A stretch of 64,000 bases of DNA from Dehalococcoidia bacterium (GCA_965262735.1 CBDHFS010000002.1:1143217-1207216); one strand, 5' to 3'; counted from the stretch's first letter, positions 3,020 to 62,953 are shown. Notes: generated from the sequence alone by a model not told the origin. Made by a program: numbers and translations.

Positions 3020-4690
3020 ATGCCCAACCTCAATGGAGGTCATCTTTTTATCCGCTGCCTCAAGCAAGAAGGCATCCAGAAAATATTCACCATCGTCGGC
3101 GACACAATTCTCCCCCTGGTGGACGCTGCCGCCGACGAGGGCATCGAGTTTATCGATGTCCGGCACGAAGGCGCGGCGATGCACATGGCCGACGGCTACG
3201 CCCGCATCACCGGCCAACCCGCCGTCGCCATGTTCACCGGCGGGCCCGGCTTCGCCAACGCCATCTCCGGCCTGCCGGCCATCTACACCTCCGAAAGCCC
3301 GGTGATTTTCGTGGCCGGCTCTGCGGAGCTGCCGGAAAAGGGCATGACAACCTTCCAGGAAATTGACCAGGTGAGCATGGCCGCTCCCGTCACCAAGGGT
3401 TCGTGGCTCATTCATGACCGCCGCCGCATCCCCGAGTACGTCGCCACCGCCTTCCGCACCGCCATGTCCGGGCGGCCCGGCCCGGTACACCTGACCCTGC
3501 CCATAGACATACAGGAGCAGGCCGTATCCGAGGAAGAGCTTCCTCCCTACCTGCCGCGCGAGTACCGCAACATGGGTCGCTCCCAGGGCGACGCCGCCCT
3601 GATTGACGAGGCCGCCTCGCTGCTGACCAACGCCCGCCGCCCGGTGATTATCGTCGGCAACCCGGCCCGATACTCCGTCGCTCCCGAGCAACTAGAAGCG
3701 TTGGTCGAGGCCACCGGCGTCCCCATCTTCACCGTCGAGCAGGCCCGGGGCCTGATAGACGACCAGCATCCCCTATGCTTCGGGTACGCCGACGGCGCGC
3801 TGAACCGGGCCGCCCGCAAGTTCCGCGAGGCCGACGTGGTGCTCCTGCTGGGCAAACGTCTGGACCACCGCTACCGCTACGGACAGATTTTCGACACCGA
3901 CGCCAAGCTGATTCAGGCCGACCCGTCGGAGGCCGAAATCGGCCGCAACCGGGGCGTCGCCGTCGGACTGCTGGGCGACCTGGGCGCCATCACCGAGCAA
4001 TTGACCGCTGCCGCGTCCCATAAAGGCAAGGCCAGCGTGGACGCCTGGGTGGCCGAGATTAAGCAGGAACAGGACGCCTGGCTGGAAGAACTTCGGGGAC
4101 ACGCCAAGGGCGAAGCGCCGCTCCATCCCCTGGACGTTTACACCCGGCTGGAAGGGTTGATTGACGACGACACCTTCATCGTCATGGACGGCGGCGACTA
4201 CGTTCAGTGGGCCCGGTCCTACCTGCCAGCCCGCAAGCCCGGCCATTTCATCCGCCTGGGGCCCCTGAGCCACCTGGGCGCCGGCATCCCCTACGGCATG
4301 GCCGCCAAGCTGGCATCCCCCCGCAGCAAGGTAATCGTGCTGTGCGGCGATGGCTCCTTCGGCTTTTACACCATGGAATACGACACCTGCCTGCGCCACA
4401 ACCTGCCCATCACCGTCGTTATGGGCAACGACTCCAACTGGGGCATAGACAAGACCTTCCAACTGGCCTACTACAACCGGGCCGTCGGCACCGACCTTCA
4501 ATTCCGCCGCTACGACCGGGTGGTCGAAGCTCTGGGCGGACACGCGGAGTTTGTCGAGAATGCCGAAGACTTGATTCCTGCGGTAGATCGGGCAATCAAC
4601 TCCGGCCTGCCGTCGCTGGTCAACGTGGTGGTCAAGCCCGGCGCCAGCCCTCTGGCCGACGCCATGATTACCCGCAGGACCGGCCGGTAG
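3020..4690 (+). CDS. Thiamine-diphosphate-dependent enzyme, acetolactate synthase large-subunit-like
   Basis: 556 aa. N-terminal Pyr domain (HEGAAMHMADGYAR) and C-terminal ThDP motif GDGSFGF...GNDSNWG. Confidence 0.8.
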   Translation: MPNLNGGHLFIRCLKQEGIQKIFTIVGDTILPLVDAAADEGIEFIDVRHEGAAMHMADGYARITGQPAVAMFTGGPGFANAISGLPAIYTSESPVIFVAGSAELPEKGMTTFQEIDQVSMAAPVTKGSWLIHDRRRIPEYVATAFRTAMSGRPGPVHLTLPIDIQEQAVSEEELPPYLPREYRNMGRSQGDAALIDEAASLLTNARRPVIIVGNPARYSVAPEQLEALVEATGVPIFTVEQARGLIDDQHPLCFGYADGALNRAARKFREADVVLLLGKRLDHRYRYGQIFDTDAKLIQADPSEAEIGRNRGVAVGLLGDLGAITEQLTAAASHKGKASVDAWVAEIKQEQDAWLEELRGHAKGEAPLHPLDVYTRLEGLIDDDTFIVMDGGDYVQWARSYLPARKPGHFIRLGPLSHLGAGIPYGMAAKLASPRSKVIVLCGDGSFGFYTMEYDTCLRHNLPITVVMGNDSNWGIDKTFQLAYYNRAVGTDLQFRRYDRVVEALGGHAEFVENAEDLIPAVDRAINSGLPSLVNVVVKPGASPLADAMITRRTGR

Positions 4691-4772: not shown

Positions 4773-4878
4773 CCCCATCCAAAAACAACGCCGGGCGCTG
4801 CATTAACCCGCACCCGGCGCAACTGTTTTCTGTATGGTGGATGCGGACCCGCGGGTCCGCACACCCGCCCATATCCGG

Positions 4879-6513
4879 CTACTCCAGCAGGAACCCCTCG
4901 TAACCGTTGGCTGCCACGTCCAGCCGCTTGGCCCGCATCACTGGAGCGGCGTCCGGGCTGGTCAGCAAGGCCCGCGCCTTGCCGGGAATGTTCGCCCCAA
5001 CGAACCACGAGTTAGCCTGCGAGCGCAGCAGCTTCGACCCTTCTTCGTTGACGTGGTTGACCCAATCGTCCTCCGCCTGAAGCGTAGGCGAAATACGGAC
5101 ATACTCGTTGTCCCGCACGTAGCGGATGCACTCCGTTACCCATTCCACCAACGGCTCGGCGGCCCGCACGAAGTTGCCCACCGAGGCGGCGTTGATGGTG
5201 AACATATTGGGGAAGCCCGCGCTCTGGATTCCCATGTAAGTGCGCGGGCCGCCGGCGAACTTCTCCTTCAACGACTGCCCGCCGGCACCGCGGATGTCAA
5301 TGCGGTTCAACGACCCGGTTACGGCGTCGTACCCCGTGGCAAAGATGATGACATCCAGCTCGTACTCGGCCTCCGTGGTCTTGAGGCCGGTGGGGGTTAT
5401 ACGCTCGATGGGAGCCTTTTTGACGTCTACCAGCAGCACGTTGTCCCGGTTGTAGACCTCGTAGTACCCGCTCTCGCAGGGCAGGCGCTTGGAACCGAAC
5501 ATGTGATCCTTGGGGGCCAGCATTTCCGCCACCACCGGGTCGTGGACCCGATCGCGAATCTTGTTGCGCACAAACTCCGCATAGTCCTCGTTGGCCTCTC
5601 CGGGCAGCATCACGTCGTAGAAATTGGACAGCCACTTCTTGAAACCCGGCTCCGCCCACAGGTTTTCGTACTGTTCCAGCCGTTCTTCCTCAGAGACTTC
5701 CAAGGCCGAGCGGGGGTCGAACTGATGAACAAAAGACCCCGCCGTCTCGCTGCACTTCTTGAAAATCTCCGGGTAATTGGCTTTGATTTCCCGCTGCATC
5801 TCATCGGAAATGGGGCCGTTCCGCAGCGGCGCGCAGTAGTTGGCCGTCCGCTGGAAAACCGTAAGGTGTCCCACCTCTTTGGCTATCTCGGTAATCAACT
5901 GCACTGCGGTAGCTCCGGTGCCGATCACCCCCACCCGCTTGCCGGCCAGGTCCATGCCTTCCTTCGGCCATCGTCCCGTGTGACACCAAGCGCCTTGGTA
6001 GGTGTCCAAACCCTCGAAATCCGGCACGTAGAACGCCGACAGCAAGCCAACCGCCGTCACCAGGAACGGCGCCCGGGCCTTGTGCCCGTCTTGAATCTCC
6101 ACCAGCCAGGTGTTCCGGTCTTCCTCAAAGGAACAGACCGCGACCCGCGAGTTGAACCGCATATCCCGCCGCAGGTCGAACTTGTCGGCGACATAATTCA
6201 GGTAACGCTCGTTTTCGGGCTGACCGGAGTAAAGCTCCTTCCAGTCCCATTCCTGGAGCAACTCCTCGGAGAAGGAATACCCATAGGTGTAGCTCTCCGA
6301 GTCGAAGCGCGCGCCGGGATAGCGGTTCCAGTACCACGTTCCGCCGACGCCGCTGCCATCTTCAAAGACCCGGACCGACATCCCCAACTGACGGAGACAA
6401 TGAAGCTGGTAAAGCCCGGTCACCCCGGCGCCGATGACGATTGCGTCAAACTGTTCAACCCCATCTTCGGGCGCGGCCCCGTTAGTCTGCGTATGCTGCG
6501 CTGAATTCACCAT
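4879..6513 (-). CDS. Baeyer-Villiger (type I flavin) monooxygenase
   Basis: 544 aa. FAD fold GAGVTG, GGTWYWNRYPGARFD, and BVMO fingerprint FEGLDTYQGAWCHTGRWP. Confidence 0.85.
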   Translation of the reverse strand: MVNSAQHTQTNGAAPEDGVEQFDAIVIGAGVTGLYQLHCLRQLGMSVRVFEDGSGVGGTWYWNRYPGARFDSESYTYGYSFSEELLQEWDWKELYSGQPENERYLNYVADKFDLRRDMRFNSRVAVCSFEEDRNTWLVEIQDGHKARAPFLVTAVGLLSAFYVPDFEGLDTYQGAWCHTGRWPKEGMDLAGKRVGVIGTGATAVQLITEIAKEVGHLTVFQRTANYCAPLRNGPISDEMQREIKANYPEIFKKCSETAGSFVHQFDPRSALEVSEEERLEQYENLWAEPGFKKWLSNFYDVMLPGEANEDYAEFVRNKIRDRVHDPVVAEMLAPKDHMFGSKRLPCESGYYEVYNRDNVLLVDVKKAPIERITPTGLKTTEAEYELDVIIFATGYDAVTGSLNRIDIRGAGGQSLKEKFAGGPRTYMGIQSAGFPNMFTINAASVGNFVRAAEPLVEWVTECIRYVRDNEYVRISPTLQAEDDWVNHVNEEGSKLLRSQANSWFVGANIPGKARALLTSPDAAPVMRAKRLDVAANGYEGFLLE

Positions 6514-8703: not shown

Positions 8704-8848
8704 GTAACAGTTCAGACTTGGTGAGATGAATTGGTTTCAGCCAACTGCCACTTTTTTCCAGGGGGTTTGGGGGATGAATCCCCCAACGTAACCCAACCCC
8801 CATATTCCGCCATCGGCCACGCCCATCCCCTCAACTCTGAACTGTTAC
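8704..8848 (+). mobile_element. MITE-like element (short subfamily, 145 bp)
   Basis: Inverted-repeat ends GTAACAGTTCAG../..CTGAACTGTTAC. GGGGAAC occurs on both flanks, offset by 1 nt. Confidence 0.85.
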
Positions 8849-10287: not shown

Positions 10288-10431
10288 GTAACAGTTCAGA
10301 CTTGGTGAGATGAATTGGTTTTAGCCAACTTCCACTTTTTTCAGGGGGTTTGGGGGATGAATCCCCCAACGTAACCCAACCCCAATATTCCGCCATCAGC
10401 CACTCCGTTCCCCTCAACCCTGAACAGTTAC
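10288..10431 (+). mobile_element. MITE-like element (short subfamily, 144 bp)
   Basis: Flanking duplication CGCATCAG at 10280-10287 and 10432-10439. Inserted 12 nt upstream of the RBS of the 10452 gene. Confidence 0.9.
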
Positions 10432-11012: not shown

Positions 11013-12218
11013 ATGACGATGCAATCATCCAATCTGCTTCCGGCCTTGCGCGAATTGCCGAGCGATGAGTCCGACCAACACCGGTCCTTCCGGGACCACA
11101 TCACCGGCATCGTAAACATGGACCGGGCGATGTATGCCGCCGAATTCGCTTCGGCAGCGTCGTTCGGTATGTGGCGAGTGTTCGTTGATGACGTCTCAAG
11201 GACAAACACGATCTTAGGCACCAATTTTCCGGAAACGGAGATCAACGACTCCTATCTGCAGGCTGCCTACGAGAGGACGGACGTTTTTGACCCTGATATG
11301 AACGTCGTCGAATATTGGCGCGATGCAATGGCTGAAGGTAGTACGGACACTCTTAACGAACTTGGCTGGAAAATGAAAGGCGTAGTTGCAGAGTTTCAAG
11401 CTAGAGACCAACTCAACGAAATTGGGTACGACCTAGAACTTGCCGATAACCCCTACCAGCAAGGTTGGGACCTTCGTGGCACTGACCCAAACGGAGAATA
11501 CGTAGAAATACAGGTCAAAGCCGGGCTCAGTGATAGACAATACGACCGTACCCTGGAAGCCATGCAGGAATCGGACTACCCCTTCATAACGAGTTCCGAC
11601 TTGCACGACAGAATCTCTGAAGACGCTCCAGAATTAGCAGACCGAATAATCGCAGATGTCGGCCCAGACTACGAGCTTGTGGAAGGCATCGAAGATGGTC
11701 TGGCAACCCTCAGCGGAAACATGGGCATCGACGTGCCCGATGGCATCGTGGATATTGTCCCTTACGCTGGCGCGATCTTCGCCGGCGCGCGCCTGATTTA
11801 CAGCGTCATCAAGACCGAAAGGGAATTCAAAGCCGCTGACCGCACCACCAAAAACAAGATTCAGGTTGTCCAGTCCTTGCAGGTAATGTCCCGATTGGGC
11901 ATAAGCGTCACTATGGCAGCAGTAGGCGGGACGGCCGGCACCGCGGCCGGCAGCTTCCTTCCAGGCCTTGGCAACCTGATCGGGGGCATTGGCGGCTCGT
12001 TAGCCGGGGCCGGTATGGGTATGTACCTCAACCGCCACCTGAAACCCCATATGCTCAATCTGGCACTGAACATCACCGGGCTCACAAATGACGACTTGTT
12101 CTACTACAAGAACAGGCCCCGCATCGACGAATTAGCTGCCACCTTCCGGAGAACTTCCAGAGAGCTAACAGCCGCTCCAACGGCTTCATGGCCTCAAATT
12201 CCCGCTGTCACCGGGTGA
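11013..12218 (+). CDS. Hypothetical protein: PD-(D/E)xK-like nuclease-fold motif plus C-terminal glycine-zipper membrane region
   Basis: 401 aa with visibly lower GC (about 47-52% in sampled 60-mers). GVVAEF..(26 aa)..WDLRGTDPNGEYVEIQVKAG resembles YraN/Mrr-type E..D..ExK cores. AAVGGTAGTAAGSFLPGLGNLIGGIGGSLAGAGMGMYL is a glycine zipper. Confidence 0.55.
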   Translation: MTMQSSNLLPALRELPSDESDQHRSFRDHITGIVNMDRAMYAAEFASAASFGMWRVFVDDVSRTNTILGTNFPETEINDSYLQAAYERTDVFDPDMNVVEYWRDAMAEGSTDTLNELGWKMKGVVAEFQARDQLNEIGYDLELADNPYQQGWDLRGTDPNGEYVEIQVKAGLSDRQYDRTLEAMQESDYPFITSSDLHDRISEDAPELADRIIADVGPDYELVEGIEDGLATLSGNMGIDVPDGIVDIVPYAGAIFAGARLIYSVIKTEREFKAADRTTKNKIQVVQSLQVMSRLGISVTMAAVGGTAGTAAGSFLPGLGNLIGGIGGSLAGAGMGMYLNRHLKPHMLNLALNITGLTNDDLFYYKNRPRIDELAATFRRTSRELTAAPTASWPQIPAVTG

Positions 12219-12440
12219 CAAAACCGGACAAAGCCGGACAATCACCGGACAAATTGGGACAAAAACCCTGCCCGCTCACGCTCAAATGTCCGGAATTGTC
12301 CGCTTTTGTCCTGGGTTTCAGACGTTTCGACTGGATGGGTGGTAAATCGGCCTCCTTGGCCGCCGCCGCCTTTACGCCCAAACCCGCCCGAATTAAACTC
12401 CGGGACAGTCCGGGTATGCTGAGGGTTGTACGGTGTACCT
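12207..12440 (-). repeat. GACA/TGTC modular repeat element, copy C (inverted; overlaps the 3' end of CDS 11013..12218)
   Basis: The reverse complement carries CCGGAGTTT, GGACAAAAGCGGACA..CCGGACATTTGAGCGTG and TGTCC(C/G)G words. GACA lies at 12217, 12227, 12237, 12248 and 12258. Confidence 0.75.
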
Positions 12441-12585: not shown

Positions 12586-12743
12586 GTAACAGTTCAGACT
12601 TGGTGAGATGAATTGGTTTCAGCCAACTGCCACTTTTTTCAGGGGGTTTGGGGCAGGGAGTTTGGATGATTTATCCCCCAACGTAACCCAACCCCCATAT
12701 TCCGCCATCAGCCACTTCGCTCCCCTCAACCCTGAACAGTTAC
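12586..12743 (+). mobile_element. MITE-like element (long subfamily, 158 bp)
   Basis: Flanking duplication TACTGACAC at 12577-12585 and 12744-12752. Confidence 0.9.
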
Positions 12744-12852
12744 TACTGACACTTCCCCCTTCCCAACCACGCCACCCATCCTCTACCATAATATTGAACC
12801 CTCGGATTGAACCCGGATTGTTTAATTCGCCTTTCCCGGCTCGCCGGCAAGG

Positions 12853-12978
12853 GCAAATGGGACTATATGAAACAAAATGGGACAGATAAAACATTCCGGC
12901 TTCCAACGGTTCCGTTCCAAACGGGTTGTCCTGCACCACCGGGCGCAAATGACACGAAATGACACGAAATGACACGGT
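12853..12978 (-). repeat. GACA-word repeat fragment, copy E (includes AAATGACACG x3)
   Basis: AAATGGGAC(A) x2, plus a 10-bp x3 tandem at 12947-12976. The reverse complement resembles the unit-2 words of copies A and B. Confidence 0.6.
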
Positions 12979-13044
12979 TTTCAGGAGTCCCAACCTGCGG
13001 CCCCCATGATCCTCTCAAAGGCAGGACGATTGCAAAGTCCCTTC

Positions 13045-13077
13045 AATCGTTCGTCCTGAGGCCCTTGAAGGACTTCC
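13045..13077 (-). repeat. 33-bp hairpin repeat (REP-like family 2)
   Basis: The reverse complement is GGAAGTCCTTCAAGGGCCTCAGGACGAACGATT. Confidence 0.75.
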
Positions 13078-13165
13078 TCGTTGACTCACCCTGGTTCGAC
13101 GGGCTAACCATGCACGGACTCAAAGGACTTTACAATCATCCTGTCTCGAAGGATCGAAGGAACCC

Positions 13166-13238
13166 CGCCTTTACACCCAAACCCGCCTGAATTAAACTCC
13201 GGGACAGTCCGGGTATGTTTCGGGGTTGTACGGTGTAC
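13166..13238 (+). repeat. Direct repeat of 12367-12439 (partial GACA-family module)
   Basis: CGCCTTTACRCCCAAACCCGCCYGAATTAAACTCCGGGACAGTCCGGGTATG..GGTTGTACGGTGTAC is shared with 12367-12439. Confidence 0.8.
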
Positions 13239-13257
13239 TACGGTGTACAATGAGGTT

Positions 13258-19838: not shown

Positions 19839-20354
19839 TCCGTGTCCTCCTAGAGTAATGTCGAGATTACTGTGTGGCTCGCGTTACTCGGTGACCCCGG
19901 AACTGGTCTCACGTTGCTAACCGCATCTGCCAAAAACCCACAGAGAGATTGCGTCGAACACCGCCGCTTACTCCCTGCCAGCAATCGTTGGAAAATATAC
20001 ATACTGGCCCCGGTTTTGTCAATCAAGAAAACCCACTATTAACAGCGAGTTTTCGTCACCAATTTATAATCAAATCGCTCTTTTTCACCCCTATATGAGC
20101 CATATAGTCCGTCGATACCCAGCCAATCACATGACTTCGACAACCTTAAACAGCAGATTTGACGCGCCCTCCAAGTCCGTTTCGTCCCAATTCCCTCGTG
20201 CTTGCGCCTTGGTGAAGTTTACTGACACCTGCCTCTTTCCAGCCTCGCCATTCCGGGGTTACCATATCTTGTGACTTGCCAATCAGGACCCGTTAAATCA
20301 CGGCCCTATTCACCTCAAGGCATTTCAAGGCCCCAGGGCAGAATGGATTGGCAG

Positions 20355-20400
20355 GAAATGGGACAAAACGGGACAGTTTTTAAAACCCCACTTTGCTCGA
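20355..20400 (-). repeat. GACA-word single unit, copy F
   Basis: AAATGGGACAAAACGGGACAGTTTTTAAAACCCCACTTTGCTCGA. The reverse complement resembles GAGC..TGGGG..TTTTTGTCC units. Confidence 0.5.
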
Positions 20401-20508: not shown

Positions 20509-20973
20509 TTGAACGAGCTGACTAAAACACTACTAGGACTGTTTCTTCTGGCCGCCTGTATCGCTGTCGTTCCTTTGGCAGCCAATGCCGGCCTGCTAAT
20601 CTTGGGCACGGATCCTAACCCCCGCCATCCACCCGGCGACCTGATGGGCGAGGCAGTGGGTTGGGCTATCCTCGGACTGCTAATCAGCGCCGTTTCAACC
20701 ATCATTGGCGAGTCCGTTAGCAGCGTCCCCAACCCCCAGAACTTCTACACCAGGCATAAGGGGCTTATTCTGGGAAGCGCCGTCGGTGTCGCTTTGGCCT
20801 TGTTCTTTGGCACCAACTTCGCCTACCTGCAAATGGCCAGCGTTGACGGACAGGCAATTACATCGGTGCCTCTGGGCATCATGTCCGGGGCAACCGTGGC
20901 GCTCATGGGCGCCGTCGCCGGAGTGGTTATGGGGTTCATTCTGCGGCGCGCTGTCGTAGCCGTCGCCGGGTGA
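20509..20973 (+). CDS. Hypothetical membrane protein
   Basis: 154 aa with a TTG start, 4 predicted hydrophobic helices and lower GC than the neighbours. No recognisable family. Confidence 0.4.
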   Translation: MNELTKTLLGLFLLAACIAVVPLAANAGLLILGTDPNPRHPPGDLMGEAVGWAILGLLISAVSTIIGESVSSVPNPQNFYTRHKGLILGSAVGVALALFFGTNFAYLQMASVDGQAITSVPLGIMSGATVALMGAVAGVVMGFILRRAVVAVAG

Positions 20974-25932: not shown

Positions 25933-26007
25933 GGACATCCATCGGTCGCCCAGAGGTTCTCCAAGGACTTCCTTTCAACTCGTTCGTCTCAACCCGTTCG
26001 TCTCGAC

Positions 26008-26039
26008 CCGTTCGTCCTTTGACCCTCGAAGGACTTCCT
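26008..26039 (-). repeat. REP-like family 2 copy, abutting the PrpD stop, with CGTTCGTCTCRACC x2.5 tandem at 25982-26018
   Basis: The reverse complement is (TAA)GGAAGTCCTTCGAGGGTCAAAGGACGAACGG. Confidence 0.75.
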
Positions 26040-27400
26040 TACCTCCGCACCGTGCGGTTGGCAACGCGGGTCAGGGCGACCACTTCGCCCACGTTTGCCG
26101 CCCGGTCCAAGTCCCACAAAGCAGCCAACAGGGGTTCAACCTCGGCTGTGGGGAGGACGTCACCCACCAGTGCCCGGAACTTTTCGTCCAACTGAGCGTC
26201 GGTCAAAGGGTTTTCCGGCGCGCCGGTGGCGTGTTCGACGCGATGCCGGTGTTCCCGCCCATCCTGCAACGTAACGGTCACTTCGACGGCGTCTTCCGCC
26301 ATTGACTCGTCTATCGTCGCCTCGATGCGGTCCCGCAGCCCGGAAATCACCGGGTCCAGCACCCGGGCGTCGGTATATTGGGCCGGGAAGGCTCCGCCAT
26401 CCACCAACCCGACAGCCATGCTGTGCTGGTAAGAAAACTTGCCTTCCAGCCCCACCTGCGGGTTGGGCCGGTCCACCAACTCCAGCACCAGCGGATGCAC
26501 CCGGGCGGCGATGGTTTGCACATCTTCGTGGGTGACGCCGGCTTCATTCTTCAGGGCAATCATGGCGTCGATTAACGGGTGGTTCACCACCCCACAGGCG
26601 TAGGGTTTCAACCCGTTCATGGTCAGTTCCCAAGACTCGCCAAGACCGTCGGTGGCCCGTTCCAGGTGGCTGTTCTCCGACATCACCGCCGCAAAGCCGC
26701 GCCGTCCTTCCAGAATGGAAGTGGTGGACGTGAAGCCCCGTTGAGCCAGCAGGGCCGCCAGCACACCGCTCTCGGCCGACCGTCCGGGGTGGAAGGGCTT
26801 GGTCATGGAGCCGAAGACTTCCCGCACTCCCGCCGCCTGCGTTCCGGCGATGCCCAGCCCGTAGGTCATCTGCGCCAGGTCCAGGCCGGACAGCTTTCCA
26901 GCGGCGATTATTGCCCCGAAAACGCCGCAGGTGCCGGTGATGTGCCAACCCTCGTCGTAATGGTAGGGATGCACCGACATTCCGATGCGGCAGCAGACCT
27001 CCATTCCCAGCACCGCCGCCGAGAGCACATCCCGACCGCTGGCGTTCAGGTGTTCGCCCAAGGCCAGCGCCGCAGGCAAGACTGGCGATGAGGGGTGGAT
27101 GACCGTTGGGAAATGGGTGTCGTCGTAGTCCTCCAGGTGTCCCAAATACCCGTTGGCAAGGGCCGCGTTCTGCAAACTGGTGCGCGTACCGGCGCCCACC
27201 ACGGACGCCAGACTGCGCCCGCCTTCAACGTCAAAGACATCCAGCAGGATGTCCAGCGACGGGTCCCGGGATGCGTACAGGGCAACGGCCAGAAAGTTAA
27301 TCAGGCACCGCTTGCCCTCGTGGATGATGGCGTCGGGTATCCCGTCCGGTCCGCAGTCAACGACGTACCGGGCAATGTCTTCAGTGGTCCCCATGCTCAC
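26039..27400 (-). CDS. MmgE/PrpD family protein (2-methylcitrate dehydratase-like)
   Basis: 453 aa with the typical PrpD N- and C-domain pattern (DYDDTHFPTVIHPSSPV...). Confidence 0.85.
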   Translation of the reverse strand: MSMGTTEDIARYVVDCGPDGIPDAIIHEGKRCLINFLAVALYASRDPSLDILLDVFDVEGGRSLASVVGAGTRTSLQNAALANGYLGHLEDYDDTHFPTVIHPSSPVLPAALALGEHLNASGRDVLSAAVLGMEVCCRIGMSVHPYHYDEGWHITGTCGVFGAIIAAGKLSGLDLAQMTYGLGIAGTQAAGVREVFGSMTKPFHPGRSAESGVLAALLAQRGFTSTTSILEGRRGFAAVMSENSHLERATDGLGESWELTMNGLKPYACGVVNHPLIDAMIALKNEAGVTHEDVQTIAARVHPLVLELVDRPNPQVGLEGKFSYQHSMAVGLVDGGAFPAQYTDARVLDPVISGLRDRIEATIDESMAEDAVEVTVTLQDGREHRHRVEHATGAPENPLTDAQLDEKFRALVGDVLPTAEVEPLLAALWDLDRAANVGEVVALTRVANRTVRR

Positions 27401-27555
27401 CGCCTGTTATAGAAAGATTGCCCAAGAAAAAGGTGGGCGAATTATAGCATGGGCTGACAATCCGGTCAGAAAATATTGCAGCCCAGGGCAATCGCGTTAT
27501 AAATGGGCGCATTATTTGCTATGTAAATCGGCCCTCCCTCGGGTTGGCGCTTTTA

Positions 27556-27681
27556 TCTAATCGTGCCCCTTGCTGCAAGGTTGGGTGGTGGCTTCACAGC
27601 AGGGGGCACGAGGGTTTGTCTAATCGTGCCCCCCGCTGCAAGGTTGGGTGGTGGCTTCACAGCAGGGGGCACGAGGGACCG
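27556..27681 (+). repeat. Tandem 63-bp repeat (2 units), each a 14-bp-stem hairpin with a 21-nt G-rich loop
   Basis: Units start at 27556 and 27619. The stem is CGTGCCCCYYGCTG/CAGCAGGGGGCACG and the loop is CAAGGTTGGGTGGTGGCTTCA. Confidence 0.85.
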
Positions 27682-27688
27682 CAAATTT

Positions 27689-28082
27689 GCCGGAGTTTTT
27701 GAGACTGACCTGGGGGATACCGGGGAGTCGTTGGTTATTGACCCAGCCCAATTCCCGGTTGGGGAGGCGAAAAAGCTGGGAATACCGGACAAAAGCGGAC
27801 ATTTGAGCGTGGGGGCTGAGGATTTTTGTCCGGGTCTTGTCCGCTAATGTCTGGGCAATGTCTGGTTTTATCACCATTTTGTCTGGCTTTGTCACCCCTG
27901 AAATACCGGGGAACCGGCCCGGCGGTTTTGGGTGCGGAAGTTTTCCCGGTGTCATTTTGTGTCATTTTTGCCGGGAGCGCGGTTGCGCCGGAAAACTTCC
28001 GGGCAGCCCGTTCCCGAACGATATAAACACGACAGAGATATGGTAGCGGGGAGATACCGGAGTTGGAAAGGGGCAAGTGTCA
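27689..28082 (+). repeat. GACA/TGTC modular repeat element, copy A (two stem-loop units plus conserved 3' module)
   Basis: Aligns with 44054-44430. Shared blocks are GCCGGAGTTT, GACATTTGAGCGTGG, GGAAGTTTT, CGGGCAGCCC and ATATGGTAGCGGGGAGATRCCGG..TTGGAAAGGGGCAAGTGTCA. Confidence 0.8.
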
Positions 28083-28187
28083 GGTTGTGCCAGAACAATC
28101 ATGACGCGATTGCCCTCTGTTGCAGCCCCGTTGAGGGCTGCAACAGATAAACCAGGGTTGCCGGGCGCCGGCCTCAACCGGCATGGG

Positions 28188-28973
28188 CTAGTTGTCGGCG
28201 ACTCCGGCGGCTTCGCGGACGTCGGCGCTCAGGTGCTGCCCGTAGAACTCGAAGACCTTGTTCCAACCGTCAACGGCAGCGTGGACCCGGTAGCTGGGGC
28301 GGTCGACGGCGAAGAAGCCGTGACCGGCGTCGTCGTAGCGATGGAAGTCGTAGTTCTTGCCGTGCTGCCGGAGGGCCGCCTCGAATTCATCAACGTCAGC
28401 GGGAGAGGGGCGGGCGTCCTCGTTGCCGAACAGACCCAGCAACGGACAACTGATGCCCGCGGTGTAGTCAATGGGCGCAACCGGCTGGCGCGAGCGTTCG
28501 AGTTCGCCTTCGGGGACCTGGTTCACTCCGCCACCCCAGCAGTCGACTGCGGCGTCGATGCCGGAGAGGGTGCCGGCGGCGAGATAGACCTGGCGTCCGC
28601 CGGAGCAGAAGCCGATGATGCCAACCTTGCCGTTGTGATAGGGCAGGGCGCGCAGGACACCGATGGCGGCGGACACATCGCCCATCGTCCTGGCGTCGGG
28701 CATTCCACCAGCATCGCGGACACTCTCGCTGTTGGCCTGGGAGCTACCCTTGCCCTCGCGGAAGTGCAGGTTGGGGGAGATGCAGGCGTAGCCGTTGTAA
28801 GCCAGCTTGCGGGCCATTTCCCTGGAGGCGTCGTCCCAGCCGGGCATGTGGTGAATCAGCACCACGCCGGGAAAGGGACCTGCGCCCAAAGGACGGGCCA
28901 GGTAGGCGTCAATCTGGTCGCCTTCGTGTCCAACCATGTTGATGGTCTCAGCTATCAGTCCATTGTAAGGCAT
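28188..28973 (-). CDS. Dienelactone hydrolase family protein
   Basis: Start at MPYNG (GAGGAGG RBS). Cys nucleophile elbow GFCSGG. Confidence 0.75.
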   Translation of the reverse strand: MPYNGLIAETINMVGHEGDQIDAYLARPLGAGPFPGVVLIHHMPGWDDASREMARKLAYNGYACISPNLHFREGKGSSQANSESVRDAGGMPDARTMGDVSAAIGVLRALPYHNGKVGIIGFCSGGRQVYLAAGTLSGIDAAVDCWGGGVNQVPEGELERSRQPVAPIDYTAGISCPLLGLFGNEDARPSPADVDEFEAALRQHGKNYDFHRYDDAGHGFFAVDRPSYRVHAAVDGWNKVFEFYGQHLSADVREAAGVADN

Positions 28974-38979: not shown

Positions 38980-39246
38980 CTAAAGATTGGTTTCAATCAC
39001 GTTCCAAACCAACCGGTTATCGACATTGGCATAACCGTGAATCAGAATGTTTCGGAACGCGATGATGCGTTGGTAACCGCTAATTCGTCCCGCCGTCTCC
39101 TGGTCGATACTCGCCAGCTTGGACATTGCTTCGCCGATGATCTCGAATTCCCGCTCCACAGCTGCGCGCAGCATCTCGTCGAGTTCGCAATCCCCGAAGG
39201 TCTTGCGGGCGGTGAACCTGGCAACAAGCACAGCGGCACGCTGCAT
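38980..39246 (-). CDS. hepT: HepT-type HEPN (DUF86) toxin
   Basis: EIIGEA...RNILIHGY (Rx4H). Immediately downstream of an MNT gene. The N-terminus looks about 10 aa short and no canonical upstream start exists in frame. Confidence 0.75.
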   Translation of the reverse strand: MQRAAVLVARFTARKTFGDCELDEMLRAAVEREFEIIGEAMSKLASIDQETAGRISGYQRIIAFRNILIHGYANVDNRLVWNVIETNL

Positions 39247-39268
39247 GTCGTGAAGATGCTTTTTGGTC

Positions 39269-39577
39269 TCAAGCCTCGTAAACTGGCTTCTTGGTCTCTT
39301 CCACCGACTGCAGAAGGTACGGGTTGGTTATAGTCGAACCGACAACCAAGTCCACGGGTTTGCCAAAAAGCTGCTCCAGGGCTTCCAGCAAACCGAAGTA
39401 GGTGTCTGCGTACGCGGGTAACGCCTCCGGCAGGAACTCAACCACGAAGTCCATGTCGCTTTTTTGTGCGTCATACTCTCCCATGGCGGCCGAGCCGAAG
39501 AGGTCTAGCCGATGTACATGAAAATGCCGGCAAAGACGTCTCAGTTCTGGGCCTTGCTTGTGTATAGTTGGGGTCAC
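39269..39577 (-). CDS. mntA: MntA-type minimal nucleotidyltransferase antitoxin
   Basis: LFGSAAMGEYDAQKSDMDFVV (GS...DxD). Confidence 0.8.
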   Translation of the reverse strand: MTPTIHKQGPELRRLCRHFHVHRLDLFGSAAMGEYDAQKSDMDFVVEFLPEALPAYADTYFGLLEALEQLFGKPVDLVVGSTITNPYLLQSVEETKKPVYEA

Positions 39578-44053: not shown

Positions 44054-44430
44054 GCCGGAGTTTGGGGACGGCCCTTGGGGAACCACGGGCATGGGAAGCG
44101 AAAAGTCCGAGAATACACGACAAAAGGCGACATTTGATGACATTTGAGCATGGAGCCGGAGGTTGTTTTGTCGCAGATTGTCGTGTCATTGTCCGATAAT
44201 GTCGCGGAAATGTCGCGTTTTGTCGCCTTTTTGTCGCCCCTTGAACGCTAGGCAAACGGGCCCACCGGGTTTGAGCATGGAAGTTTTTTTCTGTCCCATA
44301 TTGTCCCATTTACACTGGGTGCGATTGCCCCAGGAACCAGCGGGCAGCCCACTCCCAAGCCACAGAAATCTCCCAAGCCACAGAAATATGGTAGCGGGGA
44401 GATGCCGGTTTTGGAAAGGGGCAAGTGTCA
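44054..44430 (+). repeat. GACA/TGTC modular repeat element, copy B
   Basis: Same block order as copy A. Stems are ACACGACA(44115-22)/TGTCGTGT(44179-86) and GCGACA(44127-32)/TGTCGC(44169-74). Contains an 18-bp x2 tandem repeat at 44352-44387. Confidence 0.8.
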
Positions 44431-44437
44431 CAGGCAC

Positions 44438-44470
44438 GGAAGCCCTTCGAGGGCCTCAGGACGAACGGAT
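44438..44470 (+). repeat. REP-like family 2 copy
   Basis: GGAAGCCCTTCGAGGGCCTCAGGACGAACGGAT. Confidence 0.8.
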
Positions 44471-44540
44471 TAGATGGGCAGGGCAAACGGATTAAAAGGG
44501 GGAACTCGCAACGAGAACGAAAAGACCTCGGCCCACGTGG

Positions 44541-44710
44541 GTAACTGTCCAGGGTTGAGGGGAGCGGAGTGGCTGATGGCGGAATATGGGGGTTGGGTTA
44601 CGTTGGGGGATGAATCATCCAAACCCCCTGCCCCAAACCCCCTGAAAAAGTAGCGGTTGGATGAAAGCCTTGGCTGAAACCAATTTACCTCACCAAGTCT
44701 GGACAGTTAC
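44541..44710 (-). mobile_element. MITE-like element (long subfamily, inverted)
   Basis: Flanks are CCACGTGG and CCACGTTG (1 mismatch). Confidence 0.8.
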
Positions 44711-46865: not shown

Positions 46866-46924
46866 GGAAGCCCTCGGGACTGACGATTTGCGGAATTCCT
46901 TCGAGGGCCTCAGGGAAAACGATT
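46866..46924 (+). repeat. Two adjacent REP-like family 2 copies
   Basis: GGAAGCCCTCGGGACTGACGATT plus GGAATTCCTTCGAGGGCCTCAGGGAAAACGATT. Confidence 0.7.
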
Positions 46925-46942
46925 GAAAGGGGGCCGGGGCGG

Positions 46943-48428: not shown

Positions 48429-48498
48429 TGACCAATCCTTTCTGTAGCCATACTTTGTAAGGTAGGCCCAGTATATCATTGGCCGGGTTTCCGGGTAA

Positions 48499-48531
48499 GG
48501 AAGTCCTTCGAGAGCCTCGGGGCGAACGGTT
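48499..48531 (+). repeat. REP-like family 2 copy
   Basis: GGAAGTCCTTCGAGAGCCTCGGGGCGAACGGTT. Confidence 0.8.
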
Positions 48532-48593
48532 GAGGCTGGGGCGAAGGATTTTAGCCGAGGTCCGCAGAGCGAGGCAGAGTTGGTATACTGGCG

Positions 48594-49817
48594 TTGCCGC
48601 CGCGCAAAAACGACACCGGGCCCGCAGGGAGCATTTTGAACGAAGTCAGCATCATAGACCAGCAATCCGACTGGGACGCCGTCGCCGCCCAACTTGGCGG
48701 GGAACGGGAGTTGGCGGTGGACCTGGAAGCCAACAGCCTGCACGCCTACCGGGAACGGATCTGTCTAATCCAAATTGCCACCGACCGGGCCAGCTACATC
48801 GTTGACCCGCTGGCCGTGGATGACCTCAGCCGGTTGGGGGATATTCTGGGCAACGCAGAAATCGTCAAGGACGGCCACGGCTGCGACTATGACATCCGGT
48901 CCCTGGACCGGGACTACCAATTCTCCATTCGCGGGTTGTTTGACACGCAGATAGCCGCTCGATTTCTGGGTTGCCGGACGCCCAACTTGGGGGCGGTGCT
49001 GGCGGATTTTCTCAACGTATCCATCCCCAAGAGCCGGGAGTTGCAGCGGTCCAACTGGGCCCGGCGGCCCCTGCGCCCCGCCGCGTTGGAGTACGCCGCC
49101 AACGACGTCAATCACCTGGTCCGGCTGTCCGACACACTGCGGGAGCGGCTGCGGGAAGTGGAACGGCTGGAATGGGTCGAGGAGGAATGCCACCGGCTGA
49201 CGCAGACCCGCTTCACCCGTCCGGGACCGGCGGAGTTCGCGTTTTTGCGGGTGAAAGGCAGCGACCGGCTGGACGGCCGGGAGTTGGCAATCCTCAAGGA
49301 GTTACACGGTTGGCGGGAAAGGCTGGCCGAGCGTCAAGACCGCCCGGCATTCCAGATTGCCGGTAACGACGACCTGATTCAGTCGTCGCTAGTTGCCGCG
49401 CAGCACGGAACGGCCGACCTGGGACTGGTGGCTCTGATGACCGAATGTGGGCCCAGCCTGGGACCACACCTTTCCGCCGGCGTGGATTCCACCATAATCA
49501 ACGCCGCCCGCCGAGGCCTGGACAGCCCACCCTTTGTCAAACCGGAGCGTCCCCGCCGTTTCAACCCCTGGACGCCGGACGGGAAGGCGCTGCTGCAATC
49601 GTTGAAACGTCGGCGCACCGAGATTGGCGCCGCGCTGGACTTGGACCCGGCCCTGATTTGGCCGGCCCCCAGCCTGGAGCGCATGGCGCTGGCCCCGGAG
49701 GAATGGCGCATCGAGATTGAAGAGGGCGGCGCTGCCGAGGTTCGGGCCTGGCAGCGCCGGGAGTTCGGAGACCGTTGGCAAGATGTCGTAGAGACCCACG
49801 GCCGGGAAGGTCAATAA
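48594..49817 (+). CDS. rnd: Ribonuclease D (DEDD 3'-5' exonuclease plus HRDC)
   Basis: LAVDLEANSL...ICLIQIAT...YAANDVNHL. The start is uncertain. Confidence 0.8.
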   Translation: MPPRKNDTGPAGSILNEVSIIDQQSDWDAVAAQLGGERELAVDLEANSLHAYRERICLIQIATDRASYIVDPLAVDDLSRLGDILGNAEIVKDGHGCDYDIRSLDRDYQFSIRGLFDTQIAARFLGCRTPNLGAVLADFLNVSIPKSRELQRSNWARRPLRPAALEYAANDVNHLVRLSDTLRERLREVERLEWVEEECHRLTQTRFTRPGPAEFAFLRVKGSDRLDGRELAILKELHGWRERLAERQDRPAFQIAGNDDLIQSSLVAAQHGTADLGLVALMTECGPSLGPHLSAGVDSTIINAARRGLDSPPFVKPERPRRFNPWTPDGKALLQSLKRRRTEIGAALDLDPALIWPAPSLERMALAPEEWRIEIEEGGAAEVRAWQRREFGDRWQDVVETHGREGQ

Positions 49818-49850
49818 AGAAGTCCTTCGAGAGCCTCAGGAAGAACGATT
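49818..49850 (+). repeat. REP-like family 2 copy, starts immediately after the rnd stop codon
   Basis: (TAA)AGAAGTCCTTCGAGAGCCTCAGGAAGAACGATT. Confidence 0.8.
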
Positions 49851-49929
49851 TTAAGAGTTCAGAACGAGCGTGTTTCAATAAACGTCTGAGCAACTGTCCC
49901 CGTGGATCAGGGAGACCAACGGGAGCCGG

Positions 49930-51178: not shown

Positions 51179-51255
51179 TGGTAGCGCATGGGGGATTCGA
51201 ACCCCCGATCTCCGCCTTGAGAGGGCGGTGTCCTGGGCCGCTAGACGAATGCGCC
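51179..51255 (-). tRNA. tRNA-Glu: tRNA-Glu (anticodon CUC), CCA encoded
   Basis: Minus strand GGCGCATTCGTCTAGCGGCCCAGGACACCGCCCTCTCAAGGCGGAGATCGGGGGTTCGAATCCCCCATGCGCTACCA. The cloverleaf folds by eye and the anticodon loop is CUCUCAA. Confidence 0.9.
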
Positions 51256-51349: not shown

Positions 51350-51492
51350 GTAACTGTTCAGGGTTGAGGGGACCGGAGTGGCTGATGGCGGAATATGGGG
51401 GTTGGGTTACGTTGGGGGATGAATCCCCCAAACCCCCTAAAAAAGTGGCAGTTGCCTGAAACCAATTCATCTCACCAAGTCTAAGCTGTTAC
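51350..51492 (-). mobile_element. MITE-like element (short subfamily, inverted), about 95 bp from tRNA-Glu
   Basis: Full-length alignment to the other copies. The core loop is flipped (TTCA in element orientation). The flanking duplication is unclear. Confidence 0.8.
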
Positions 51493-52613: not shown

Positions 52614-53015
52614 TCAGCGCAACTCCACCACCCGGTCAATGGTGGGAATGTCCGGCCGGAAGGTCGCGCGCCAGGCTTCCAAACCCTTAATTTTCGCGAC
52701 GCTCCCAATCCAGCCGCCCACCAGGTCCAGGACGGCCATGATTTCTTCGGGGCTGGCGCCGGCCTTGTTGGCGGCGTGCATGTGCAGCTGAACGTGGGAC
52801 ACCAGGTCGCCGCTGGCGACGCAGGCCACGACTATCAGCAGTTCCTTGGTCTTCCGGTCAATCAAGCCTTCCTTGAGGTAATTGGCCTCGGTGTTGTCGT
52901 TGTGCCGGGCCAGAGCTTCCGGCCCGCCCAGGTGGGCCACAAAGTCGTGCAGCCCAAAGCGGAACCCACGCAGCGCGGTGGTGCGTTCCAATTCCCGTTC
53001 CATGTCGGTTGACAT
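52614..53015 (-). CDS. CMD/AhpD-like family protein (tandem paralogue 1)
   Basis: Start at MSTDME (AAGGAGAAG RBS). DRKTKELLIVVACVA...HMHAANKAGASPEEI. Confidence 0.7.
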   Translation of the reverse strand: MSTDMERELERTTALRGFRFGLHDFVAHLGGPEALARHNDNTEANYLKEGLIDRKTKELLIVVACVASGDLVSHVQLHMHAANKAGASPEEIMAVLDLVGGWIGSVAKIKGLEAWRATFRPDIPTIDRVVELR

Positions 53016-53093: not shown

Positions 53094-53498
53094 CTAGCGC
53101 AGTTCCACTACCCGGTCGATGGTGGGGATGTCGGGGCGGAAGGTGGCGCGCCAGGCTTCCAGCCCGTTGATTTTGGCGACGTTGCCAATCCAGCCGCCGA
53201 TCAAGTCCAGCACCGCCATGATTTCCTCCGGGCTGGCACCGGCCTTGTTGGCGGCGTGCATGTGGATTTGGAGGTGCGAAACGAGGTCCTGCTTGGCGAC
53301 GCAGGCGACCACCAACGCCAATTCCTTGGTCTTGCGATCCAGGGTCGTAGTGTTAATGTAGGTATCTTCAACGTGCTGGTTGACTGCCTTCAATGCTTCC
53401 AGGTCGTATTCGGCGTAGAAATCGTGCAGGCCGTAGCGGAACCCGCGCAGTTCGGTGACTCTTTCCAGGACTTCCTGTTTTTCTTGCTCGGTGGGCAT
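53094..53498 (-). CDS. CMD/AhpD-like family protein (tandem paralogue 2)
   Basis: 134 aa. The C-terminal 60 aa are nearly identical to the neighbouring paralogue (..WRATFRPDIPTIDRVVELR). Confidence 0.7.
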   Translation of the reverse strand: MPTEQEKQEVLERVTELRGFRYGLHDFYAEYDLEALKAVNQHVEDTYINTTTLDRKTKELALVVACVAKQDLVSHLQIHMHAANKAGASPEEIMAVLDLIGGWIGNVAKINGLEAWRATFRPDIPTIDRVVELR

Positions 53499-53616
53499 TG
53501 TACCTCCTGCTTTGACAGACTTGGGATACTGGGCCGGTTAATCCAAGTGTAATGGCCAAGCGTATTTGCCAAGTGTACTTGACGGGGTTGGCGGCGGCAA
53601 ACCGACCGCGTGGGTG

Positions 53617-53774
53617 GTAACAGTTCAAAGTCGCGGGGAGGGGAGGGGCCGATGGCGGAATATGGGGGTTGGGTTACGTTGGGGGATTCATCCCCCAAAC
53701 CCCCTGGAAAAAATTGGCAGTTGCCTGAAAGCCTTGGCTGAAAACAATTCACCTCACCAAGTCTGGACAGTTAC
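53617..53774 (-). mobile_element. MITE-like element (inverted)
   Basis: TGGGTGG occurs on both flanks. Confidence 0.8.
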
Positions 53775-54948: not shown

Positions 54949-55015
54949 CACGACAAACCAAGACATTTGAGCGTGGGGCCGCAGCAACTTTGTCGTGTTT
55001 TGTCGCTTGGTGACC
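54949..55015 (+). repeat. GACA/TGTC single stem-loop unit, copy D
   Basis: CACGACA(54949-55)...GACATTTGAGCGTGGGGCC...TGTCGTG(54991-97), then TTTTGTCGC. Confidence 0.7.
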
Positions 55016-55251
55016 GGGCCAACCGGAAAGGCCGAGGCCGGGGTCCGGCTCGCAGAATTGGTCATCAATCTCCAGCGTCAATCGCAGGTTAAAGGGCGGT
55101 TTGCCCAAGGGTTTTCGACGGCTATCGTTTACGTTAAAGAGGCGTGACGGCCGTTGTCAACGGCCAATTGTCATGGGCTGGCTCCAGCCCGTTTACCGCG
55201 GGTTGCCGGATGGTCCCACTGCGATTTCCCTTGACTGCCGACAAACCCCGC

Positions 55252-56613: not shown

Positions 56614-56756
56614 GCAACTGTTCAGGGTTGAAGGGAGGGGAGGGGCCGATGGCGGAATATAGTGGTTGGGTTACGTTGGGGGATTCATCCCCCAAACCCC
56701 CTGAAAAAGTGGCAGTTGGCTGAAACCAATTTACCTCACCAAGTCTGAACTGTTAC
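56614..56756 (-). mobile_element. MITE-like element (inverted), starts 4 nt after the SDR stop codon
   Basis: Full-length alignment, with one mismatch in the terminal inverted repeat. Confidence 0.8.
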
Positions 56757-60001: not shown

Positions 60002-60025
60002 AGGCTCCTCTGGCGGAGAAACGAA

Positions 60026-60058
60026 GGAAGTCCTTCCAGGACCTCAGGACGAACGGTT
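60026..60058 (+). repeat. REP-like family 2 copy
   Basis: GGAAGTCCTTCCAGGACCTCAGGACGAACGGTT. Confidence 0.8.
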
Positions 60059-60077
60059 CAAAGACGGCTGCCGGGAG

Positions 60078-60830: not shown

Positions 60831-61001
60831 AAGCGTAAAACCCGCCAGCGCCTGTATGTTTACGGATGGTGTTTCCCAAGGGCCTGACGCCGGCTGACCA
60901 ACCCGACCCACCAGCGTTTTCCGGCCCCATGATTGTAGATTTTACCCCGTGCGGCGTCAAGGCGGCGCCGGGGTTCGCACCAGCCGGGGTTCGCACCAGT
61001 A

Positions 61002-61033
61002 GGAAGTCCTTCGCGGGTCTCAGGACGAACGAC
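61002..61033 (+). repeat. REP-like family 2 copy (preceded by 16-bp x2 tandem at 60968-60999)
   Basis: GGAAGTCCTTCGCGGGTCTCAGGACGAACGAC. Confidence 0.8.
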
Positions 61034-61082
61034 GCAACGGACTTGGCAATGGCCGCGGTGTTGGCACGAAGACCAACGTGGC

Positions 61083-61237
61083 ATAACTGTTCAGGGTTGA
61101 GGGGGGCAGAATGGCTGATGGCGGAATATGGGGGTTGGGTTACGTTGGGGGATTCATCCCCCAAACCCCCTAAAAAGTGGCAGTTGGATGAAAGCCTTGG
61201 CTGAAACCAATTTGCCTCACCAAGTCTGGACAGTTAC
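61083..61237 (-). mobile_element. MITE-like element (inverted)
   Basis: Flanks are AACGTGGC (61075-82) and AACGTAGC (61238-45). Confidence 0.85.
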
Positions 61238-62783: not shown

Positions 62784-62841
62784 TAGCTACGATAAGAGTT
62801 CCTGAAGAGTCCCTGCCCCGGAATGGAAGGGAGGTCAACAA

Positions 62842-62876
62842 GGGAGTCTCCTTCGAGAGCCTCAGGACGAACGGTT
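62842..62876 (+). repeat. REP-like family 2 copy
   Basis: GGGAGTCTCCTTCGAGAGCCTCAGGACGAACGGTT. Confidence 0.8.
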
Positions 62877-62953
62877 GGACTCCTCAAAACAACATACTGG
62901 ACAACGTACTGGACAAACTAGTGGTTGAACGGATTAGATGGGGAATAGCGGCG

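Follow-up and report, generated by a model that had tools for sequence, protein, structure and literature searches.

Short DNA words in arrays are the building units of several described systems: ParR-parC consists of two blocks of 11-bp repeats, the heptad or tetramer boxes of omega and ParG occur in both direct and inverted orientation, inverted operator repeats accompany the Rep iterons of plasmids, and tandem Pho boxes are made of a 7-bp TGTCA-type word and a 4-bp A/T spacer, with a period of 11 bp. Pneumococcal BOX elements are modular interspersed repeats with a variable internal tandem array, and the Neisseria Correia/NEMIS elements are promoter-bearing interspersed elements to which the cassette described below can be likened. 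E. coli oriC holds two oppositely oriented DnaA arrays with an 11-bp period (PMC10380432, PMC9198467), a MITE (miniature inverted-repeat transposable element) of Porphyromonas contains a minisatellite (PMC4596501), and promoter reuse in prokaryotes, or mobile promoters, gives highly similar upstream sequences before non-homologous genes (PMC3575422). Here we analyzed 64,000 nucleotides from a Dehalococcoidia bacterium (GCA_965262735.1, CBDHFS010000002.1:1143217-1207216), referred to as the window, which is chromosomal, rich in metabolic genes and has a G+C content of 61%. At positions 27689 to 28082, where an earlier reading of the sequence alone (the sequence-only reading) had described a family of GACA/TGTC stem-loops, we found a modular, non-coding, interspersed cassette that combines a promoter-like box (P2) with a helically phased array of about seven direct and three inverted words (7+3), always 5' of a gene.

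We put at about 0.5 the probability that this is a lineage-specific, interspersed promoter/operator-like cassette acting on double-stranded DNA, a reading that was drawn from sequence comparison. The words would then be docking sites, on one face of an intrinsically curved duplex, for an oligomerising sequence-specific DNA-binding protein, for which a PhoB/OmpR-type or ParR/omega-type grammar would fit, and this protein would control the cassette's own P2 and/or insulate the resident promoter of the downstream gene.

Recurrence and anatomy of the cassette

The core GACATTTGAGCRTGG, with up to two mismatches, matched the window four times, at 12276-12290 on the minus strand and at 27798-27812, 44139-44153 and 54962-54976 on the plus strand, while dinucleotide-preserving shuffles gave a mean of 0.30 matches and reached four or more in 0 of 100; arrays of at least four GACA/TGTC words at 10-11 bp occurred in 0 of 50 shuffles. 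The loop that the sequence-only reading had reported as shared is thus recurrent, and every word quoted for its four copies (A to D) was found where it had been placed. Its count of at least four units was borne out as far as it went, and more exist, namely P2 boxes at 55131-55172 (minus strand), 12748-12789 (plus) and 20224-20265 (plus), and cassettes E and F. At least six related genomes, assembled independently and some of them as complete long-read chromosomes, showed the same architecture. These data indicated a genuine modular, non-coding repeat family, as had been proposed, and chance low-complexity sequence or an assembly artefact, in favor of which only the shortness of the individual words can be cited, is a negligible explanation in view of the shuffle counts and the independent assemblies.

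In a nucleotide self-comparison, copies A (27762-28082) and B (44093-44430) were paralogues with 68% identity over 350 bp, so the composites with a common 3' module that had been noticed are real. ORFs (open reading frames) across A and B had only short, frame-shifting similarity, in agreement with the claim that this module is non-coding, and a small 'MVAGR...' ORF starting in it has a stop at codon 4 in OZ253670.1 (L010). A coding reading of the cassettes was rejected, since ORFs are not kept in frame between copies.

A scan of a genome collection with a 15-mer revealed, among the matches listed, true homologues only in OZ253670.1 (at least seven copies) and DAOUIZ010000024.1 (at least one), both Dehalococcoidia genomes assembled from metagenomes; the remaining listed matches, about 105, were due to chance. 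A BLAST search with element A gave no match in the plasmid and phage collections, a metagenome scan with a 21-base gapped pattern gave two matches, both chance coding sequence, and viral scans gave none and then eight, all by chance. The cassette is lineage-restricted to Dehalococcoidia (Chloroflexota), interspersed and non-coding.

For reading the cassette, the strand of the neighboring gene was chosen; in the case of A, B and D, the view taken previously was the reverse complement of this. Towards the gene, a full cassette consists of P2, a degenerate mini-array and the iteron block. P2 is followed by a variable stretch, usually of about 85 to 130 nt, and the sequence between P2 and the block is not conserved; the stretch is closed by the mini-array, with two or three degenerate AAATGNGACA words, about 15 nt and then CCATGCTCAAA. 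The iteron block, of about 130 bp, has about seven direct GACA(A/T)3 words, a 29-30 bp gap with CCACGCTCAAA and three inverted words (TGTCCGGAAATGTCCGCTTTTGTCCGG). This inverted triad is followed by T(A/T)TTCCCAG and, at a greater distance, by the resident promoter and the gene itself. On the opposite strand a full copy appears as two or three GACA words, the core, about 15 nt and five to eight TGTC words; the stem words of the sequence-only reading are real, but only the first one or two of the right-hand words had been noted. The words fall into two subtypes, CCGGACA and CGACA, each common to all words of one copy. The members in the window are as follows.

28040-28081, minus strand: P2 box of cassette A, cTGACAC-ttgcccc-TTTCCA-N18-TACCAT; the reverse complement of the previously described 3' module
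27920-27973, minus strand: mini-array of cassette A, previously taken as a second unit; TGTCAT words at 27950 and 27960 and a degenerate core, where the homologous unit of B keeps TTTGAGCATGG
27785-27896, minus strand: iteron block of cassette A; GACA at 27788 and 27798, core TTTGAGCGTGG at 27802-27812; second-strongest A/T-tract phasing
27827, 27838, 27848, 27859, 27880 and 27890: TGTC words of the iteron block of cassette A, with a degenerate word near 27870
27689-27784, minus strand: gene-proximal module of cassette A (AAACTCCGGCA...), common to B and partly to C and E
44388-44429, minus strand: P2 box of cassette B; both hexamers kept in the orthologue of the 96% relative L140
44268-44312, minus strand: mini-array of cassette B; TTTGAGCATGG at 44270-44280, TGTCCCAT words at 44292 and 44302
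44115-44238, minus strand: iteron block of cassette B; three GACA words (44119, 44129, 44139), the core (44143-44153) and a run of eight TGTC words (44169 to 44232)
12206-12313, plus strand: copy C, with nothing but an iteron block; five GACA words in direct orientation (12217 to 12258), the core TCACGCTCAAA (12276-12286) and three words in inverted orientation (12287, 12297 and 12307)
12748-12990, plus strand: cassette E; P2 at 12748-12789, mini-arrays with three AAATGACACG words at 12951-12974, no main block
55131-55172, minus strand: P2 box of cassette D, variant 2, ATGACAA-N8-TTGACA-N18-TAACGT; one base different in L140
54949-55007, minus strand: short iteron block of cassette D; GACA at 54952 and 54962, core at 54966-54976, TGTC at 54991 and 55001
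20224-20400, plus strand: cassette F; P2 at 20224-20265, mini-array AAATGGGACA AAACGGGACA ... CTTTGCTCGA at 20355-20400

Cassette E lies upstream of a ThiS/TtuB-like gene at 13243, and at its 5' edge an unrelated MITE with the target duplication GTGTCAGTA is inserted exactly at the TGACAC word. Cassette F lies upstream of a resident promoter and the ORF 20509-20973. Copy C overlaps the stop codon of the ORF 11013-12218, which falls inside the first word of the block. This ORF (401 aa) has a lower G+C content than its neighbors, with a GC3 (G+C at third codon positions) of 0.63 versus about 0.8; it was rejected as the cognate protein, since it belongs to no Pfam or NCBIfam family and its acidic N-terminal half and glycine-rich, membrane-like C-terminus are not DNA-binding-like. 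A 74-bp segment with AAACTCCGGGACAGTCCGGG, akin to the gene-proximal module that A and B share, is duplicated at 92% identity (12366-12438 and 13165-13238).

Word phasing and the hairpin

Spacing of the direct words was measured in 14 copies with 77 words. Adjacent words were 10 bp apart in 31 cases and 11 bp apart in 25 (56 of 64 intervals; mean, 10.45 bp), with 21 or 22 bp where a word had decayed, and in 13 of the 14 copies 29-30 bp separated the last direct word from the first inverted one. In an A/T-tract periodogram of the whole window, the full blocks C, A and B ranked first, second and third, with a power of 3.2-3.9 at a period of 10.6-10.7, where the median was 0.15 and the 99th percentile 1.4, and the units of D, E and F were also among the top eleven windows. 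The block thus has at least three copies of a short word at helical-repeat spacing, as an iteron or operator array does. Binding to one face of B-DNA predicts a strict spacing of 10 or 11 bp, for which a hairpin gives no rationale, and the spacing therefore favors docking on the duplex. Among the three options left by the sequence-only reading (a structured small RNA, a hairpin-end mobile element or a protein-binding scaffold), the last fits best.

Like the iteron and operator arrays, the cassette has one word per helical turn, direct and inverted words around a gap, A/T-rich spacers and an adjacent promoter-like box, and its word, TGTCA(C/T) followed by three or four A/T bases, matches the grammar of the Pho box. 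Those arrays are single-copy and lie beside the gene of the binding protein or at an origin, whereas the cassette is dispersed, at about one copy per 10-20 kb, before unrelated housekeeping genes and with no cognate protein gene adjacent; unlike DnaA boxes, its words lack CACA.

Every copy folded into a long hairpin, with z-scores of -2 to -8 against shuffles on either strand, and L051 has a perfect 27-bp inverted repeat. In this respect the cassette resembles repetitive extragenic palindromic (REP) sequences, bacterial interspersed mosaic elements (BIMEs) and REPINs (PMC8049555), which are likewise abundant, short, non-coding intergenic repeats, long-lived in a lineage, with inverted units able to form a hairpin of about 100-130 nt. 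As the sequence-only reading had held, however, it is not of the REP/BIME kind: it has no REP-like palindrome (20-40 nt, adjoining GTAG), being built of 10-11 bp words in 7+3 arrays, it is never found in convergent (3'-3') spacers, and its copies do not keep one hairpin register. The approximately 64 kb plus the loci searched revealed no RAYT gene. Integron attC sites, which had also been set aside, were rejected, because the R''/L''-L'/R' boxes with GTTRRRY are absent from the sequence and the flanks are syntenic housekeeping genes with their own promoters, not promoterless cassettes.

Co-varying GACA/TGTC stems had been presented as the sign of a selected RNA or single-stranded DNA (ssDNA) hairpin. 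For copy B, both stems are indeed perfect, with symmetric 4-nt internal loops (aaag / agat). For copy A, the positions of the word pairs were right, but the pairs are crossed and cannot nest, with CCGGACA lying outermost on the left and TGTCCGG on the inner side of the right arm; in its minimum-energy hairpin, the left words pair with the second and third right-hand words. RNAalifold, applied to an alignment of 12 copies, predicted 17 pairs, all inside near-invariant words, and the covariation term was +1.06, which is a penalty. The register of the sequence-only reading (L1.R1, L2.R2, L3.R3) was paired in 81.7% of cells, and a shifted register that is mutually exclusive with it (L1.R2, L2.R3, L3.R4) in 80.1%; in each, only seven cells showed a double change, at word flanks that set B and L034, the copies of CGACA type, apart from the others. 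For the three-word arm, which hardly varies, the array has no equally conserved partner: the best one matches at 14-22 of 29 positions, in varying registers with loops of 5-68 nt (27 of 29 in L051, the exception). Since the stem variants are word subtypes of whole copies, the apparent co-variation is not base-pair compensation. These results did not support a selected RNA or ssDNA hairpin with compensatory changes in one register, and we propose that the arms are complementary because one and the same word recurs in inverted orientation.

What had been favored before is essentially a structured RNA, that is, a small RNA or a long 5' leader transcribed from P2, whose triad-array hairpin would serve in processing, in termination or as a protein sponge. 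It would agree with the position of P2, which most copies have upstream of the block at a distance of about 45-330 bp (typically 115-150 bp), with the folding of every copy better than its own shuffles, and with the U-rich sequence (TTTTCC / TATTCC) that follows the 3' arm in the majority of copies; the covariation score of the register first described was also 0.109 compared with a shuffled mean of 0.060, a value reached by 2 of 500 shuffles, although the tool itself carries the caveat that related sequences exceed shuffles in 5-25% of structure-free cases. Apart from the missing covariation bonus and the equal score of an incompatible register, such an RNA is made quite improbable by pairing partners and loop sizes (16-68 nt) that vary between copies, by at least four surplus words without a partner, by the 10.45-bp phasing, which an RNA fold does not explain, and by the unconserved sequence between P2 and the block. 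Rfam 15 at the gathering threshold recovered only a tRNA (51182-51255) in the whole window, and a permissive scan of 27500-28200 gave only sub-threshold, miRNA-like hairpin noise; the view that the element lies outside the described non-coding RNA families thus holds against Rfam 15. An intrinsic-terminator scan detected no canonical terminator at the inverted triad; the only calls were weak hairpins formed internally between words, opposite in strand to the genes, and, with these weak calls and the loop sizes given above, an intrinsic terminator (a short GC-rich hairpin directly followed by a T-run) was rejected.

Promoter-like box, gene context and turnover

P2 has the pattern (C/A)TGACA(C)-N8-TT(T/G)(C/A)CA-N18-TA(C/A)C(A/G)T, of which pattern search and alignment recovered 15 copies, with 0 matches in 776 kb of unrelated control loci. 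Its homology begins sharply, exactly at the TGACA word, which provides a GACA word upstream of the hexamers. The spacer between the hexamers is fixed at 18 nt (17 nt in one copy) and variable in sequence, and a second variant combines a perfect TTGACA with TA(A/C)CGT. As in sigma-70-type promoters, the hexamers are more conserved than the spacer, and between orthologues the words and hexamers stay constant while the spacers drift. This pattern of conservation is promoter-like and would fit a promoter that fires in the direction of the block and the gene. Consensus sequences were also compared by eye with the conserved boxes, and the sigma-54 (wrong GG/GC spacing), IHF (TTR missing) and DnaA-box (CACA missing) readings were all rejected.

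The cassettes occupy 13 independent loci, each upstream of a gene and directed at a gene start. The genes encode PrpD, glyoxalase, PanE, a ThiS/TtuB-like protein, a small membrane ORF, a ChlI/ComM-like protein, POR, ribosomal protein L25, a luciferase-like oxidoreductase, OTCase, an alpha/beta hydrolase, DLH and one unnamed product. Five of these contexts are tandem, with the cassette co-oriented with the genes in 5 of 5, six are divergent, none is convergent and two could not be assigned. Within the 64 kb, C, E and F run opposite to A, B and D, each along its local gene, and orientation is therefore set by the gene and not by the replichore; an orientation set by the replication strand, as in IS200/IS605-like elements, was rejected. 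The cause might be that only the direction towards the gene start is tolerated or useful.

For this dispersal, promoter reuse or mobile promoters are the closest concept. Mobile promoters and Correia elements share with the cassette a promoter-like box, intergenic position, direction towards the gene and presence or absence between relatives. The cassette differs from them by its phased iteron block of about 130 bp, by the lack of terminal inverted repeats and of a TA duplication, and by its place upstream of a resident promoter rather than instead of it. The resident promoters lie downstream of the cassette and are conserved in relatives without it.

Syntenic loci in relatives were compared, as the sequence-only reading had recommended, and orthologous sites proved to hold a cassette in some genomes and none in others. 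On 18 ENA contigs, which we took to be of the window's species, a protein 100% identical to PanE of the window is encoded; identity is 96% in L140 and 87% in OZ253670.1, and PrpD orthologues with 82-86% identity marked four further syntenic loci (the listed GTG start of PrpD in the window is two codons upstream of the real ATG). The DLH-PrpD spacer measures 141-176 bp in relatives versus about 790 bp in the window, and the proximal PrpD promoter (TGCTATAAT) is conserved in the window and in all relatives compared. Conversely, relatives carry a cassette upstream of DLH that is missing in its entirety from the window, and the DLH promoter, TTGACA-N17-TAATCT, is conserved in both. At this DLH locus the block is present in L117, L119 and L120, while L116, which is closest to L120, lacks exactly 128 bp (block and triad), with 1-2 bp of microhomology at the junction. 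At the PanE locus, the P2 box is common to the window species and L140, in which an unrelated MITE replaces the block, and in OZ253670.1 the cassette is absent, with a spacer of only 224 bp. The orthologous B copies of the window and L140 are 92% identical and differ by the gain or loss of whole words, the indels measuring 11 and 15 bp in the block and 10 bp in the mini-array. Thus, cassettes are gained, lost and resized by whole words among close relatives. The PrpD spacer of the window also holds other inserted sequence besides the cassette. Two tandem 63-bp repeats (27552-27677; 95% identical) lie between cassette A and the PrpD promoter, each with a strong GC hairpin (CGTGCCCC..GCTG...CAGC..GGGGCACG) and absent from relatives.

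In such turnover the cassette is like BOX elements and the Porphyromonas MITE, which also have a conserved head and tail, an internal unit number that varies between strains and an intergenic position. It is unlike them in its unit of 10-11 bp versus 23-45 bp, in the added inverted triad and gap and in the lack of MITE-type termini.

Presence or absence at orthologous sites in close relatives would also be expected of a non-autonomous mobile element, MITE- or REPIN-like, whose words are bound by a transposase encoded elsewhere or whose hairpin is a substrate of an HUH/Y1 enzyme. The words would then form a sub-terminal repeat grammar as in Tn7-, Tn402- or Mu-type ends, P2 would be the remnant of a transposase promoter in the left end, and the orientation bias would reflect selection against antisense insertions. 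In line with this are the 128-bp block bounded by inverted words and cleanly missing in L116, the sharp cassette boundary exactly at the TGACAC word, and the activity of another MITE family in the same genomes; the TGTC(A/G)TTTT words may also resemble Tn402/Tn7-type terminal repeats. However, the filled and empty sites of the DLH, PrpD and PanE loci revealed no consistent target-site duplication of fixed length, inverted similarity at the cassette ends goes no further than the 6-7 bp word, the orientation of the words is wrong for TG...CA ends, and direct and inverted arrays abut across a conserved gap. The paralogous copies are old, with 68-78% identity (68% for A and B), and both word subtypes are present in the window and in OZ253670.1, which dates the subtypes to before the split, and nothing points to recent bursts. 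In orthologous copies, words and hexamers appear to be kept by constraint, and the loss in L116 is equally explained by hairpin-mediated slippage. No transposase, integrase, HUH domain or Y1_Tnp was detected among the window genes scanned or the annotated relatives, and in the small part of each genome (3-5 Mb) that was inspected no transposase, integrase, HUH enzyme or regulator stands beside any copy. We therefore regard a mobile element as unlikely; if the cassette were a transposon relic after all, it would define a new end architecture.

Some of the data also weigh against the promoter/operator-like cassette. The gap of 29-30 bp is a non-integral number of helical turns, and the 15-bp indel in the L140 orthologue of B breaks the phase. 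The P2 boxes of A and B match the sigma-70 consensus at only 8/12 and are not called by the promoter scanner, which calls better promoters close to the PrpD and glyoxalase genes. Orientation is informative only in the five tandem contexts (p ~0.03), and the hairpin of every copy, together with the 27-bp repeat of L051, may leave room for a role as RNA or ssDNA. Finally, no cognate binding protein was identified, the neighboring genes being metabolic or ribosomal and none a DNA-binding regulator.

Should the words dock one protein, the promoter/operator-like cassette would be a natural portable unit that rewires unrelated housekeeping genes in an uncultivated, environmentally abundant class, and the docking array, with its word of 10 bp, its fixed geometry and its many copies in the genome, would give a point of entry to regulation in Dehalococcoidia. 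More tentatively, it could be a so far undescribed portable regulatory module, in which a promoter and a 7+3 iteron platform are moved or copied before arbitrary genes and enroll them in the regulon of a single oligomerising DNA-binding protein, or a new class of bacterial mobile element with machinery that recognizes one-turn iterons. For annotation, the cassette explains about 130-450 bp of unassigned intergenic DNA per spacer, and calls of ORFs or hairpin RNAs across these regions are suspect.

Other features of the window

An abundant MITE of 145-175 bp, with terminal inverted repeats GTAACAGTTCAGAC...GTCTGAACAGTTAC and target-site duplications of 7-10 bp, has ten full copies in the 64 kb. 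It differs from the cassette by these clear terminal inverted repeats and duplications, of which the cassette has neither. It also occurs in OZ253670.1 and replaces the D block in L140.

1-78, 1533-1704, 8704-8848, 10288-10431, 12586-12743, 44540-44710, 51350-51492, 53616-53774, 56616-56756 and 61084-61237: full copies of the MITE
2839, 4736, 6610, 6970, 8085, 8984, 14525, 34289 and 52393: examples of MITE fragments of about 40 bp

A third dispersed repeat, of about 30 bp (CGTTCGTCCTGAGGCCCTCGAAGGACTTCC), has a small internal hairpin and at least nine copies, often just past gene ends, and may be a terminator-like or REP-like element. A hairpin with a 12-bp stem (28115-28150) lies just past the DLH stop.

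13025-13090, 26004-26045, 44433-44472, 46887-46935, 48493-48538, 49805-49855, 60015-60066, 60995-61055 and 62829-62882: copies of the CGTTCGTCCTGAGGCCCTCGAAGGACTTCC repeat

Three paralogous thiamine-diphosphate enzymes of 556 aa (3020-4690, 4834-6504 and 57291-58961), two of them in tandem, are too diverged to show in the nucleotide self-comparison. A 245-bp duplication with 82% identity (52616-52859 versus 53096-53339) corresponds to two adjacent genes of the carboxymuconolactone-decarboxylase family (PF02627), an annotation taken from the same-species locus L130. At 38980-39577, a HepT-like RNase and an MNT-type nucleotidyltransferase form a type VII toxin-antitoxin-like pair amid housekeeping genes.

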